A DNA stretch of 64,000 bases. Source: SAR324 cluster bacterium (lineage in GTDB: Bacteria; SAR324; NAC60-12). The DNA is taken from contig JANQJU010000095.1 in assembly GCA_028281495.1 (NCBI GenBank), positions 25,206-89,205 of the forward strand, in the 5' to 3' direction. Position 1 is the stretch's first letter. The number at the start of each line of letters is the position of its first letter. Below are positions 39,601-56,586 of the stretch, piece after piece. The position numbers and the translations under genes were made by a program. The notes beneath the pieces were generated by a model. That model did not search any database. It worked only from the letters and a program-made list of their open reading frames with translations, and was not told the origin of the DNA.

Positions 39601-40337
39601 GGGGCTAAGGGGGGAGGAGGGAGGCTTAAATGATCTCGGAGCTGGGAATGGGAATTGGGGAAAGGGAGTCTTCCTGTTAGGAGTTCGTAGAAGATACAGC
39701 CAAGAGCATAAAGATCCGTTCTGGCATCCAAAGCAATACAGCGAATTTGTTCTGGCGCTGTATAGCCGGGACTGCCTCCTATGCTGAAGTCTGCTTCCAA
39801 AGCCATCTTATTTGGAGTGCTGTAAAATCGGCAAGTTTGTTCAAAATCAATAATGATGGCTTTTCCAGAAGGTGTGATGAGGATATTTTCTGGTTTGAGA
39901 TCCGCATGCACTAAGCCATATTGGTGCAATTGAGATAATGGATAGCATATCTGACAAATTAGAGTGCAGGCTTCTTGAAAGATGGTGGATTCGAGTTGGT
40001 TTGAGGGTTTGAGGGTTTGCCAAATTTGTTGTTGGTGTTCGCGTAGCGTTTTTCCCTCAACCCAAGAACGGGCAACCCATTGAATGCTTTGAAACATCCC
40101 TTTTTCCACAATGAACAGCTCTTCCGAGACCCTCTCTGATTCTAGAATTTGGATTTCTCGTTGCAGCCCAAGAAACTTTTGAGGATGCGCTTCTTGAGCC
40201 GTCTTTACAATCACTCGTTGTTCTGACGATTTGCAATACCCTCGATAAGTGCTTCCACTGGGGGCTTGGATCAAAGGTTCACTGAGCTCAATAGAACCCA
40301 GGTGGAGCGGAAAATCATGATGAGGAGAAACTGACAT
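36603..40337 (-). CDS. Ser/Thr protein kinase fused to a STAND/AAA ATPase and C-terminal TPR repeats.
   Basis: HADLKPENILI, DFE (DFG-like) and GSPGYTAPE kinase motifs. Walker A LIRGESGMGKT. Long helical-repeat C-terminus. 1244 aa. Confidence 0.65.
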   Translation of the reverse strand: MSVSPHHDFPLHLGSIELSEPLIQAPSGSTYRGYCKSSEQRVIVKTAQEAHPQKFLGLQREIQILESERVSEELFIVEKGMFQSIQWVARSWVEGKTLREHQQQIWQTLKPSNQLESTIFQEACTLICQICYPLSQLHQYGLVHADLKPENILITPSGKAIIIDFEQTCRFYSTPNKMALEADFSIGGSPGYTAPEQIRCIALDARTDLYALGCIFYELLTGRLPFPNSHSQLRDHLSLPPPPLAPEVENLPQPINQLVQSLLAKSMTDRPGYASDVVQQLLPHTSRQFQKEFREMAPAASNYLYRPTFTGRRDLIRALRPFLDPESTQGGAVLIRGESGMGKTFFANELARLFQGRFFHVVRGETVPTTEMMGHQSQFSTNTQPFQAFLKEVVEQCKLDGKEKTQQWLGDQYAVLSLYEPKVKELGKLLEAPDSIWGIDLPTEVLLQEVKHAFAEMLNHYARTTKLVLILDDLQWANELTLSILEWLLPEKLQAMNVLLIGFYRTEEVPSILQALNENKDVVSFQLERLTQNEVSQQLESMLALSQFPPPLVKLLYHESEGNPFYVAEYLRMAVAENWFARTHEGHWQFQPPPQASASSNFQLETPNSIQELLVRRIQALPEAGQIFLHVGSILGRVFEVNLVSVILSQDDVSQDEKDWPPVLEELFQAGILEESQPGRVSFTHDKLRECCTNMISPAQNEHYHQAAATVMESNFKESSDPSLLAPLAHHWLEGGKPETAMGYFGQAGFHARQSLVPKESITYFEKAIAIAQKRKLSHPNQMATWLAGVARSYEDLGDLQQSEHQAIRALAEYGEPIPSSRGEWATLILKQSWRQLNFRLFSSKASQTSNAAPPVTHWKDASLLVSFLSRRYYFSNNMLGMIGSAILAVNLLDRSRATDSGAAHSFLGLVLGSCTLRKLAQYYLDKAETYALTAEGPLGYNDQTFTFVAVGHYLTGVGQWQESQRVIDYLGRLINKDLDPKNYAQYQSTLGALKFFQGQLQETQTIFNEMIEVGQTWNNRQHLAWGLFMSGRSALLKGHPQRAKTYLIQAKTHLEEVQDYASMLICLGLLIQTHMTLEEWESAEEVANHTLELQNQSLPMALTVIDGCLGPLQFYLHRWQTAKLTGHSQELPQWQAKTKNAFGFVKKLALLFPILKPTCLIYQALVLRCSDKEQQAVRILKKSLHWSQHFQMPYPQAQAQTLLAQSSCVESQKCGEYAVQAEHLYQQMGCRPFSFFTHETSSS

Positions 40338-52772: not shown

Positions 52773-53195
52773 ATGATCAATTTTATCGAAGTTAGCAAAG
52801 CAATATCCCATGCGTTACGCCACGAACCATGGCTTTATGAATTGGAATTGGATCAAGAAGGCTGGGTTCCTATGGAACAGATGTTATCTGCATTACACTC
52901 TGAAAAACCGGATTGGGAGTCCTTACAAGAGAGCGATCTTCATACAATGATGGCGCGATCGGAAAAGCAACGGTATGAGATCCAAGATGGCAAAATTCGG
53001 GCGCTTTATGGTCATTCAGTACCAGGGAAGGTCACCAAAACTTCCACAGCGCCCCCCTTGGATTTCGACTCCAGTATTGGGGGTTCGATGCCTCCCGCCC
53101 CTACCAATCTAAAAGGTTTAAATAGAATATCTAACGATAAATATGCAGCTATGGGAAAAGAATTCAAAAGGTTTGAGAAGCTACAGTCAATGTAA
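52773..53195 (+). pseudogene. kptA: Truncated RNA 2'-phosphotransferase gene. The N-terminal region is intact and the catalytic C-terminal half is lost.
   Basis: SKAISHALRHEPWLYELELDQEGW and KIRALYGHSV match the KptA/Tpt1 N-terminal motifs. The sequence after about residue 95 diverges from the family (no ...YHGT... region). Confidence 0.45.
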
Positions 53196-53505: not shown

Positions 53506-53776
53506 AAGGGAGAGCTGAATATTCGGTGGAGGTGTTTTGAAATAGAGACGAGTTTTGTTTCGAAACCATCATCCACACAGAGTTGATGCTTTGCTCGTAT
53601 GAGGATACCGCTGACTGAATGCTCGGTTAGAGACTGGGCTGGTTTCGATTTTTCCTAATTCTCGAAAAACGATTCCTGTCTAGTTTGCGATTCGTCCAAT
53701 CGGTAAGCTCAATCATTCGACCGCATTGATTGTGTTAAGAATATTCAGTGATCTTGACAGAAAGGAGGTTAAATTC

Positions 53777-54931
53777 ATGTTCAAAATTTTGTTTATATGG
53801 ATATGTCGACTGTTGATGTTTGAACGGATTCTTGTGCAAGAAAATCAACGTGTACTGGTGTTTCGAGATGGAACGTTCCTTAAAATTCTATCGCCAGGCA
53901 CCTATTGGTTTTTTAAGGCACTTCATGAATTGACCTTTGAAAATCACGATATCACGCAACCTCAATTTTGTAGTGAATGGACCGATGTATTGTTGAAAAA
54001 TCACAAAGATGAAGTAGCGGATTGTTTGACCTGGGTTGATATTCTGGATCATCAGGTCGCGCTCGTTTCATTGAACGGAAAGGCTTATGAACTGCTTCCT
54101 TTAGGAGCACGTCGGGCTTATTGGACTGTGATGCATGAGCTTGATTTTGAGGTGATTGACACGTCGCAGAATCTGCAGGTGCCTCCTGAAAAAGTACCTA
54201 CACTGATGCGACTGAGGTCCAATCATTTCAGCTGGCACATTGTTACTGAAAACAGTGTAGGGTTGCTGTTTGTCAATGGTCAACTGACTCAACAATTGGG
54301 GCCTGGAGGTTATGCGTTTTGGAAAACTGGGTTAGAGCTACGGTTCGAAATTCTAGATTTGCGGGTGCAGCAAGTTGAAGTGGTTGGACAAGAAATTTTG
54401 ACCAAAGATCGTGTCAGCTTACGAGTGAATTTGACCGCGCATTACCAAGTGATGGATCCGGTTAAAGCCAAAACTCAGGTGGTTGGTTATTCCGATATGC
54501 TTTACAAATACTTACAGTTCGGTTTGCGTGAAGCGATTGGTGGCCGAAATTTGGACGAACTCTTGTTGGATAAAAACCAACTCAACGAAGTCGTTTTCTC
54601 CACAGCTAAAAACCAAATTGAAGCGTGTGGCGTGGAGTTAAAAGCGGTAGGTATCAAGGACATCATTTTGCCTGGCGAAATCCGGGACATCATGAACCAA
54701 GTGGTTGAAGCACAAAAGCGTGCCGAAGCCAACTTGATCAAAAGGCGTGAAGAAACCGCTGCTACCCGATCCTTGCTCAACACAGCTAAGTTGATGCAGG
54801 ACAATCCCACGTTGCTGCGCCTCAAGGAGCTAGAAGCGCTAGAAAAGGTAACGGATAAAATCGACAACCTGCATGTCTATAATGGGGTCGAGGGATTGAT
54901 GAATAACTTGGTCCCTTTGGCTAAATCGTAA
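53777..54931 (+). CDS. SPFH/band-7 (stomatin/prohibitin-like, slipin-type) membrane protein.
   Basis: N-terminal TM helix then an SPFH domain and a coiled-coil tail (...IKDIILPGEIRDIMNQVVEAQKRAEANLIKRRE...). Start chosen at the Met preceded by RBS AAAGGAGG. Confidence 0.55.
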   Translation: MFKILFIWICRLLMFERILVQENQRVLVFRDGTFLKILSPGTYWFFKALHELTFENHDITQPQFCSEWTDVLLKNHKDEVADCLTWVDILDHQVALVSLNGKAYELLPLGARRAYWTVMHELDFEVIDTSQNLQVPPEKVPTLMRLRSNHFSWHIVTENSVGLLFVNGQLTQQLGPGGYAFWKTGLELRFEILDLRVQQVEVVGQEILTKDRVSLRVNLTAHYQVMDPVKAKTQVVGYSDMLYKYLQFGLREAIGGRNLDELLLDKNQLNEVVFSTAKNQIEACGVELKAVGIKDIILPGEIRDIMNQVVEAQKRAEANLIKRREETAATRSLLNTAKLMQDNPTLLRLKELEALEKVTDKIDNLHVYNGVEGLMNNLVPLAKS

Positions 54932-55094: not shown

Positions 55095-56492
55095 TTATTT
55101 ATTCTTTACCCTTAGAGATTTAAGCAAACGCTCCTTTGCATTTTCGTACTGGCTATCATTTCTCCAATTTGAAAAATCTGCGACATGTTGCTGTTTAAAA
55201 AGCATCTTCACCCAGGCTAATTGCGATCTTAGCACCGAATCATCCAATCGAATCGGTAATATATTTGATTTTCCTTGAGCAGCCCAATGGTATTCCTTTG
55301 AGACCCATTCGCTTTTTATAGAATGCCTTGAAAGTATGACAAGAAACACCTTACTACGTTGAATCTCTGCCAGAATCGTTTCTTTTAGATAATCTCCTCC
55401 GTAAAGATCATTGTACCAACAGTTCACACCACCGAGAGTCAGGTCAGCATATAGCCTATTGGTAAACTCTCTATCTTCTGAAGTATGGCTCATAAAACAA
55501 AAATCCCTTTCATGTATCTGAGCTTCATCTAATAGGATTGCATCCCTTAAATTAGCCTCACCAAATTCTGTTCGACGGACTTTTACCTTGCGTAAATCTG
55601 TCTTTGTCAACCTCGCTCCTGAAAGATTCGCTTGTCTTAGATCTGCTCCCTGAAGATTCGCGTGTTCCAAAATTGCGTTCTCGAAATCTGCGTGTAGGAG
55701 ACTTGAATTTCTGAAGTCTCCACCGCTCAAATCGACTTCCTTCAAAACGACTCTGTTCATGGTCGAATTTTGACATCTGGGAGGCTCTTCAAAATCTGCT
55801 TTTAAAAAGTTTGCCTCACTTAGATTGGCTTCTTCGAAATCTGTATTCATCAGGCGAGCACTTTCAAAGTTGGCTTCACCCAGGTACGCATATCTGAAAT
55901 CTGTATTCATCAGGCGAGCACTTTTAAAGTTTGCTTCACTCAGGTCCGCATATCTGAAATCTGTATTCATCAGGCGAGCACTTTCAAAGTTGGCTTTTTG
56001 AAGTTTCGCCTCACGAAAGTCTGCTCTATTGAGATTTGCTTCATAAAACCTAGAATCGTCCAAAATCGCTTTGACAAGGTCGGCTTCTTGAAGCATCGCC
56101 CCACTGAGATTAGTATTATTCAAATCTGTTCTAAAGAGAGTTGCATTACTGAGATCCGTATTACTCAATTCCGCATGACTTAAATTAGCTCCCTCCAGTT
56201 CAACACCCTGCAAGTTAGCATCACTAATATTTGCTTCACTGAGATTAGAGTCTTTCAAATCGGCACCACGAAAGTCAGCCCCTTGAAGATTAGCACCGCT
56301 GAGATTTGCTTCGTTTAATTTCCAATTGCTAAAATCCTTGTTTCTTAAATCTACCTTCTTGAGGTCAGCTATTTCTCCTTCTTCGCCTTCTGACTCAACC
56401 CATTCTTCATGTTTTTCGAGAATGAGTTCCAACTCTTCTGCAGAAATTTTTCGTAAATCAGCCACTGAATCTCTCAACTTGAGTTTTTCCAA
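55095..56492 (-). CDS. Pentapeptide-repeat protein with a C-terminal TIR domain.
   Basis: About 280 aa of A(D/N)LxG/A(N/D)L pentapeptide repeats. C-terminal ...RDFCFMSHTSEDREFTNRLYADLTLGGVNCWYDDL...KVFLVILSRHSIKSEWVSKEY is a TIR-like fold (F-I/M-S-H/Y motif). Confidence 0.6.
   Translation of the reverse strand: MEKLKLRDSVADLRKISAEELELILEKHEEWVESEGEEGEIADLKKVDLRNKDFSNWKLNEANLSGANLQGADFRGADLKDSNLSEANISDANLQGVELEGANLSHAELSNTDLSNATLFRTDLNNTNLSGAMLQEADLVKAILDDSRFYEANLNRADFREAKLQKANFESARLMNTDFRYADLSEANFKSARLMNTDFRYAYLGEANFESARLMNTDFEEANLSEANFLKADFEEPPRCQNSTMNRVVLKEVDLSGGDFRNSSLLHADFENAILEHANLQGADLRQANLSGARLTKTDLRKVKVRRTEFGEANLRDAILLDEAQIHERDFCFMSHTSEDREFTNRLYADLTLGGVNCWYNDLYGGDYLKETILAEIQRSKVFLVILSRHSIKSEWVSKEYHWAAQGKSNILPIRLDDSVLRSQLAWVKMLFKQQHVADFSNWRNDSQYENAKERLLKSLRVKNK
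55836..55997. repeat. About 2.7 tandem copies of a 60-bp repeat (around 93% identical) inside the pentapeptide-TIR gene. They encode 20-aa repeats ARLMNTDFRYA(D/Y)L(S/G)EANF(K/E)S.
   Basis: Read directly from the sequence. The period is exactly 60 nt (55837/55897/55957). Confidence 0.7.
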
Positions 56493-56586
56493 ACTACTAA
56501 GTAATAACGTAAGAATTGGGGATAACTCAAGCCGATCCGTAAATATTCAGAGTAACTATGAGAATGTCATTACATTAGAGTGAGTT

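Follow-up and report, generated by a model that had tools for sequence, protein, structure and literature searches.

A diverged pentapeptide-repeat TIR protein encoded next to a type I-E cas operon belongs to a large family of candidate stand-alone sensor-effectors

The gene at positions 55095..56492 (minus strand) of the analysed window, a 64-kb stretch of a contig from a SAR324 cluster bacterium, encodes a pentapeptide-repeat beta-helix with a C-terminal TIR domain (PRP-TIR). It belongs, as a diverged member, to a large family that is already present in databases; its architecture is not new, and the gene is not Cas-associated. We infer that its product is a free-standing single-polypeptide sensor-effector NADase, a function to which we give an even chance.

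The open reading frame starts with TTG at 56492 and encodes 465 amino acids (ORF list, Pfam); an alternative GTG start at 56465, 27 nt inside at codon 10, gives a product of 456 amino acids (public gene call, identical short-read contigs). The first-pass annotation had described pentapeptide repeats and a TIR-like domain at this place and proposed a search with the two Pfam profiles, and both the ORF list and Pfam bore this out. PF00805 (Pentapeptide) matched in seven stretches with E = 2.4e-64, and PF13676 (TIR_2) matched residues 333–456 with E = 5.7e-19 and 69.2 bits (cut-off 28), covering profile positions 2–121 of 122. Neither match can be due to chance. Further repeat models related to PF00805 also matched the protein, and the C-terminal domain gave weaker matches to TIR (PF01582) and ThsB_TIR (1e-5), whereas nothing beyond pentapeptide-repeat families and TIR, and no CARF or SAVED domain, was found with Pfam. 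Matches to PADLOC models were partial and confined to the TIR domain (PDC-S66, 2e-12; ThsB, 7.5e-7); a full-length match to PDC-S66 was absent, with residues 317–414 corresponding to profile positions 137–240 of 282, the TIR part alone. On its downstream side, the gene is convergent with an SPFH/Band_7 gene and is therefore monocistronic. The gene is intact and encodes a pentapeptide beta-helix joined at its C-terminal end to a TIR domain.

The protein begins with an acidic cap (residues 1–41, 56370..56492, minus strand, net charge −8) that contains the helix ELELILEKHEEW, assigned by AF2 to residues 18–33; the cap motif was also found in the aligned homologues P0023 and P0031. Part 1 of the beta-helix follows (residues 42–236, 55785..56369, minus strand) with 39 pentapeptides in unbroken register, equivalent to approximately 10 coils of 20 residues, and a net charge of −13. 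A 12-residue break (PPRCQNSTMNR) separates it from part 2 (residues 251–321, 55530..55742, minus strand), which has approximately 15 repeats by register and directly abuts the TIR domain. Overall, approximately 54 pentapeptide repeats are in register, forming approximately 14 coils over residues 42–321, and the net charge of the whole part preceding the TIR domain is −22. The AF2 full-length model had pLDDT values >90 across residues 40–250, and Foldseek matched the fold of the repeat part to HetL, Np275/276, Qnr, MfpA, and AlbG. At residues 257–329, the model was of low confidence and uninformative because the alignment there carries the family linker and holds no information on part 2. The tandem A(D/N)LXX repeats and the quadrilateral beta-helix of pentapeptide-repeat proteins were recovered by the PF00805 match, the register, AF2, and Foldseek.

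Tandem Repeats Finder revealed a 60-bp tandem duplication in the repeat-coding region (55836..55996, minus strand) with 2.7 copies of 94% identity, the sole strong tandem repeat of the window. Each 60-bp unit encodes exactly one 20-residue coil (ANFxS ARLMN TDFRY AxLxE), and the helix has therefore been lengthened recently by whole coils. Public short-read assemblies and contigs end at this array.

The TIR domain (residues 331–465, 55098..55502, minus strand; Pfam, PDB, and AF2) includes a family-specific C-terminal helix tail (H..DF..W...Y....LL..L). The best sequence matches in the PDB were PdTIR (4.4e-8), AbTIR (1e-7), Cat1 (1.7e-5), and BtpA/TcpB. The AF2 model of the TIR domain alone (pLDDT 85, pTM 0.79) had as best structural neighbours exclusively enzymatic TIRs, with SPARTA TIR-APAZ as the top match (TM 0.72), alongside AbTIR (TMt 0.72), SARM1, Cat1, and BtpA (Foldseek). 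Pfam, PDB matches, and the AF2 fold all agree with the initial assignment of a C-terminal TIR domain, and the structure prediction suggested at that stage placed the catalytic glutamate where an enzymatic TIR has it. The predicted catalytic residue is Glu400 (codon at 55293..55295, minus strand; alignment and model) in the motif W396-x3-E400 (W396-V-S-K-E400); it lies within helix 78–89 of the TIR-only model (alphaC) and shares its column with the Glu of the AbTIR 'W-T-N-Y-E' and the Cat1 'W-C-W-D-E' motifs. In the alignment of the TIR domain with 41 relatives (42 sequences in all), E400, F333, S388, S394, and W396 were invariant. A near-complete profile match, the W-x3-E glutamate in alphaC, and a flavodoxin-like fold in the model place the domain in the TIR_2 class. 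Its BB loop is two residues shorter than the family consensus, and the alignment revealed several substitutions at nearly invariant family positions. The C-terminal tail motif (RHIGDF..W...Y..AF.RLL.DL) is present as QHVADFSNWRNDSQYENAKERLLKSL, with F440, W443, Y449, L456, and L460 conserved. Judged from alignment and model, the domain has an enzymatic-class fold with an intact W-x3-E motif and is apparently an active NADase. AbTIR, PdTIR, and TcpB (BtpA) share with it the catalytic Glu column and the fold, and are its best PDB matches (E from 4e-8 to 2e-4); they differ in having coiled-coil or other N-terminal regions and no beta-helix, at approximately 25–30% identity.

The TIR domain on its own returned no relatives in a word-indexed search, as there were no common 5-mers, and an exhaustive HMMER search was used instead. 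It yielded 10,439 TIR relatives at E ≤ 1e-3 and 1,435 at E ≤ 1e-10. Pentapeptide repeats were present in 55 of the 116 nearest TIR relatives; the other partners in this set comprised a second TIR, Response_reg, an Mrr-type REase, DUF4062, CHAT, Cas6, Band_7, and others. The full-length search retrieved dozens of Pentapeptide + TIR_2 clusters from Acidobacteriota, Chloroflexota, and others, with lengths of 360–570 amino acids and covering 85–98% of the query. Scanning a single representative genome for each GTDB species identified 337 genomic stretches encoding relatives, in Acidobacteriota, Chloroflexota, Planctomycetota, Chlorobiota, Proteobacteria, Verrucomicrobiota, Cyanobacteria, and more phyla. 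The 55 of 116 relatives, the dozens of clusters, and the 337 stretches show that this TIR subfamily is paired at its N terminus with pentapeptide repeats more often than with anything else. The first-pass annotation had considered them an unusual partner of a TIR domain and knew of no described architecture of this kind; neither view was upheld. Some of the homologues are already listed at NCBI as 'toll/interleukin-1 receptor domain-containing protein' or 'pentapeptide repeat-containing protein'. Full-text literature searches returned no paper describing or experimentally testing a pentapeptide-TIR protein. The distribution of PRP-TIR is patchy over many phyla, and just six relatives or loci were found among 2.9 million viral contigs.

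The window protein shares at most 37% identity with its relatives over the full length and at most approximately 44% in the TIR domain. In nearly all of the 37 aligned homologues, a conserved linker, 'GPSTIGIDTIYRS...FLRGCGVPD', lies between the repeats and the TIR domain; this family linker of approximately 50 residues ('HxGPSTIGIDTIYRSxGxIPExFLRGCGVPDxFI') is not present in the window protein, whose beta-helix part 2 stands where the main PRP-TIR family has the conserved linker module. PRP-linker-TIR proteins such as P0018 (Pyrinomonadaceae), P0033 (Ktedonobacteraceae), and P0109 (Blastocatellia) resemble the window protein in their cap helix, beta-helix, TIR_2 domain with W-x3-E, and tail motif. 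They are 27–37% identical to it, whereas the window protein has approximately 15 extra pentapeptides in place of the linker and the shorter BB loop. By its sequence, the window protein is a diverged, linker-less outlier of the PRP-TIR family. Since it has no linker and a BB loop shortened by two residues, its activity could differ from that of the family. No close orthologue locus of the window gene was found in the GTDB-species scan, the pattern of which did not fit the window's own diverged motif. In a P0023/P0054-like subgroup of the family, the catalytic Glu is absent, and the genes lie amid housekeeping genes (alignment, loci).

The genomic neighbourhoods of homologues were analysed in 80 loci of ±10 kb, in which 1,347 neighbour ORFs were clustered and 150 immediately adjacent genes were profiled. 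The sole recurrent family was PRP-TIR itself, with 116 members in 78 loci and 2–5 copies in 21 loci. The next clusters were generic (histidine kinase/receiver in 12 loci and XerC-type integrase in 5 loci of the 80); no neighbour family occurred in more than 12 of the 80 loci, and no Pfam family more than twice among the 150 adjacent genes. PRP-TIR genes have no conserved partner gene, and the window gene has no operon partner. Approximately 10 of the 150 adjacent genes were PADLOC-positive, a raw count in which several models are generic; the models matched were those of a type I MTase, a DRT reverse transcriptase, IetS, and TIR, and the candidates PDC-S15, PDC-S31, and PDC-M30A. One further adjacent gene had a VMAP-C domain (Pfam). 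The other adjacent genes were ordinary metabolic or informational ones, and the surroundings were mostly heterogeneous or housekeeping, as at locus L003, where a protein of the Glu-less subgroup is encoded amid housekeeping genes. Some loci are clear conflict islands: L001 contains a NACHT-SNaCT gene, a TIR gene, and a second pentapeptide protein, and L002 contains six tandem PRP-TIR paralogues together with a PNP-TIR gene, an NB-ARC/WD40 gene, and IS elements. The TIR domains of the L002 paralogues are 50–60% identical, whereas their repeat parts are 28–45% identical and 139–224 amino acids long. A predominance of non-defence contexts among homologues, named by the first-pass annotation as evidence against an immune role, was thus found in part: most neighbours are heterogeneous or housekeeping, but a minority of loci are clear conflict islands.

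These neighbourhoods also bear on a ThsB-like mode of action, in which the TIR domain would make a cyclic-ADPR-type messenger for an effector encoded elsewhere and would not itself deplete NAD+. TIRs of the AbTIR class make cADPR isomers, and the weak ThsB_TIR and ThsB matches in Pfam and PADLOC would fit such a signal generator. However, the ThsB scores are far under the generic TIR_2 score, and the proposed search for ThsA-like or other partners came up empty: no ThsA, SIR2, Macro, or SLOG-type gene was present among the ORFs of the 64-kb window, and none was recurrent in the 80 homologue loci. The ThsB of Thoeris is likewise a small bacterial TIR protein, linked to the window protein by weak profile matches only, but Thoeris needs an adjacent ThsA, which was found neither in the window nor at homologue loci. 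We consider a ThsB-like signal generator improbable.

A non-immune role is somewhat easier to reconcile with the data, though still rather unlikely in our judgement. Here, the beta-helix would mimic DNA or act as a protein scaffold and so regulate a DNA-binding enzyme of the cell or a developmental process, as Qnr/MfpA and HetL do, and the TIR domain would mediate interactions or serve metabolism in place of acting as a suicide effector. The closest folds to the repeat part (HetL, Qnr, MfpA, and AlbG), the strongly acidic part preceding the TIR domain, the mostly housekeeping or heterogeneous neighbourhoods, and the existence of the Glu-less subgroup are in line with it. Qnr, MfpA, AlbG, and HetL share with the window protein an acidic right-handed quadrilateral beta-helix, but Qnr, MfpA, and AlbG are stand-alone DNA mimics of approximately 200 amino acids and have no enzymatic domain. 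The non-immune role is opposed by the invariance of the catalytic Glu in most relatives, by the conflict-type domains among the other fusion partners of the TIR subfamily, and by the tandem paralogue arrays and the patchy phyletic distribution, features that characterise conflict genes as opposed to housekeeping regulators.

The same evidence was weighed for the stand-alone sensor-effector. In its favour, we counted the domain architecture, the conserved Glu400 with the enzymatic-type fold, the lack of any recurrent neighbour family, the conflict-type character of the subfamily's other fusion partners (CHAT, Mrr REase, Cas6, Band_7, a second TIR, and DUF4062), the combination of a constant effector with a variable repeat module in the L002 paralogues and in the coil duplication of the window gene, and the conflict-island homologues together with the patchy phyla and the rarity on viral contigs. 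Against it, we counted the mostly non-defence neighbourhoods, the Glu-less P0023/P0054-like subgroup, the outlier character of the window protein, and the partial, TIR-only PADLOC matches. Pentapeptide repeats have been listed with the repeats that form superstructures in bacterial conflict systems and NACHT proteins (PMC7159879, PMC8195603, bioRxiv 10.1101/2022.07.19.500537), and are treated there as sensor modules (PMC7159879, bioRxiv 10.1101/2022.07.19.500537); they are among the sensor repeats of bacterial NACHT proteins (bioRxiv 10.1101/2022.07.19.500537). In HalA of the Hailong system, a pentapeptide domain is reported to be fused to a defence effector, but this effector is an ion channel and not a TIR domain (PMC13586616). 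Counter-defence has been suggested as the role of a pentapeptide protein encoded by a phage (bioRxiv 10.1101/2024.07.02.601686).

What triggers PRP-TIR, how it oligomerises, and what it produces are inferred throughout. The rigid, acidic right-handed quadrilateral beta-helix would bind a trigger, or would scaffold self-assembly. TIR domains brought together in this way could form a composite active site, at which NAD+ would be cleaved, possibly yielding cyclic ADPR isomers, and growth arrest or abortive infection would be the outcome. Variation in repeat number and sequence, seen here as a coil duplication and elsewhere as paralogue arrays, may tune specificity. TIR-STAND/NLR-like proteins and SPARTA TIR-APAZ resemble the proposed PRP-TIR mechanism in that a TIR is joined to a sensor and assembly switches on the NADase; they differ in their NTPase switch or Argonaute/APAZ partner, both absent in PRP-TIR, where the repeats are fused directly to the TIR domain. 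The single-gene sensor or effector of the first-pass annotation is in keeping with the monocistronic gene and the enzymatic-type TIR domain, whereas its Cas-associated variant found no support in the following comparisons.

Upstream of the PRP-TIR gene and divergent from it, cas3 (Cas3_HD and helicase domains) starts at 56587 and is followed by cse1, cse2, cas7, cas5, and cas6e, a type I-E operon. The divergent intergenic region comprises 94 bp (56493..56586; sequence), in agreement with the head-to-head distance of about 95 bp noted at first, or 121 bp if the GTG start is used. PRP-TIR could in principle be a Cas-associated accessory that is coupled to the type I-E system, as a back-up suicide effector or an anti-CRISPR sensor, and co-regulated from the 94-bp region. 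Besides the head-to-head position, the existence of CRISPR-linked TIR effectors argues for it, since Cat1 is both a sequence and a structure match, as does one Cas6-TIR fusion (P0210) among the 116 nearest TIR relatives. Cat1, a CARF-TIR protein, shares with the window protein the TIR NADase class and a CRISPR-Cas neighbour, but it is activated by cA4 via CARF and belongs to type III, whereas the window has a type I-E system, an unconserved linkage, and no CARF or SAVED domain in PRP-TIR with which to read cyclic oligoadenylate. Type I-E systems are not known to produce a cyclic-oligoadenylate signal. In tblastn searches of the 80 homologue loci (±10 kb), in which the probes were the window's I-E-like Cas proteins only, none of the loci contained relatives of Cas3, Cse1, Cse2, Cas7, Cas5, or Cas6e, and no cas family was found by Pfam among the 150 genes adjacent to PRP-TIR homologues. 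The nearest Cas3 relatives are only 45–48% identical and point loosely to Gamma- and Betaproteobacteria; in the two whose contigs were usable, cas3 is preceded by a deacetylase-family gene or a WYL regulator, not by PRP-TIR. The adjacency to cas3 is thus not a conserved association, and PRP-TIR has no domain suited to reading a CRISPR-derived signal. A promoter and terminator scan near the PRP-TIR gene and of the 94-bp region gave one weak minus-strand match that was not above shuffled sequence. Coupling to the Cas system is largely refuted by the unconserved synteny and in our view very improbable, and the first-pass suggestion of a Cas-associated protein is not sustained. The position of PRP-TIR beside cas3 is best read as coincidence, at most as loose clustering of accessory and defence genes.

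In a more speculative version, the acidic beta-helix would act, like Qnr/MfpA, as a DNA-mimic bait that catches a DNA-binding protein of an invader (for instance a replication protein, a nuclease, or a factor directed against restriction or CRISPR), upon which TIR assembly and NAD+ depletion would follow; the coil duplication would then retune the bait. We regard this as a long shot. If it held, the very large PRP-TIR family would make up a class of immune sensors not known before, each a single protein using 'decoy DNA', and the place beside cas3 could reflect guarding of the CRISPR system.

The PRP-TIR family spans hundreds of species from soil and sediment phyla. If its members are NADases triggered by phages or mobile genetic elements, as the stand-alone sensor-effector function would have it, they would constitute a widespread single-gene system with a pentapeptide beta-helix as sensor, a new role for this fold when joined to a TIR domain. 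The locus also carries a caution: a gene next to a cas operon need not be taken to work with Cas on that ground, and fusions of this kind are by no means rare.

Two further neighbours of the gene were considered and rejected as functionally linked. Of the neighbouring KptA/Tpt1 gene, whose family uses NAD, only a truncated remnant is present, and homologues have no such gene nearby; the convergent Band_7 gene had no Band_7 counterpart in any of the 80 loci, though one Band_7-TIR fusion exists. Scans of the window for Rfam families and tRNAs gave no match. Elsewhere, the window is mostly ordinary chromosome, with a Zn ABC transporter, an AraC/GyrI regulator, beta-lactamase-like genes, LamG, and a sigma-54 activator.

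An SPFH/Band_7 gene (window 53726-54931, + strand) lies convergent with the gene encoding the pentapeptide-repeat-TIR (PRP-TIR) protein. Among the 116 nearest relatives of the window TIR domain, one was a Band_7-TIR fusion (P0216) and one a Cas6-TIR fusion (P0210). These two fusions, each a single case, mirror both neighbours of the window gene, Band_7 and cas; neither Band_7 nor cas genes were found near PRP-TIR homologues in the 80 homologue loci surveyed. At window 52773-53195 (+ strand) lies what is left of a gene for KptA/Tpt1, an RNA 2'-phosphotransferase that uses NAD+. The profile match covered the N-terminal lobe only (positions 4-88 of 177), and the C-terminal lobe is missing from all three frames.

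PRP-TIR paralogues were clustered at some loci, with two to five family members per locus in 21 of 78. Homologue locus L002 (3345-20080) carries a tandem array of six paralogues, together with IS elements and genes for PNP_UDP-TIR and NB-ARC/WD40 STAND proteins. In locus L001 (6162-15045), a PRP-TIR gene has two such neighbours, one encoding a NACHT-SNaCT13 protein and the other a further TIR protein. Alignment of the window protein with its PRP-TIR homologues (A1) revealed Ile or Val at the position of the catalytic Glu in P0023, P0032, P0035, P0039, P0054, and P0062. These Glu-less PRP-linker-TIR proteins may represent a non-enzymatic offshoot of the family; the gene for P0054, the sole such member whose context was examined, is surrounded by housekeeping genes.

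Two public short-read contigs from Logan (L087/L088, SRR20820735/34; position 1-499) with a cas operon identical to that of the window stop within the 60-bp tandem repeat of the PRP-TIR gene, and thus the full gene is absent from both assemblies. An exact look-up of the window PRP-TIR protein gave no entry in the protein collection.

Elsewhere in the window, two overlapping large ORFs of 1078 and 421 amino acids (14259-18741, - strand) gave zero Pfam matches. The GC content around them was 0.36-0.40 versus approximately 0.45-0.50 elsewhere, and the low-GC stretch at 13-25 kb may be a horizontally acquired island of unassigned function. A 1580-amino acid ORF (379-5121, + strand; GC 0.52, strong A-over-T skew of 0.2-0.39) looks like a polymorphic toxin, since a non-specific DNA/RNA endonuclease (residues 1078-1196) is the only domain that can be recognised in it. 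A STAND-like Ser/Thr kinase-AAA_16-TPR protein of 1244 amino acids (36603-40337, - strand) gave generic PADLOC kinase matches (PD-T4-6), and the gene at 30855-32852 (- strand) encodes a 665-amino acid protein of the bacterial MACPF (perforin-like) type.
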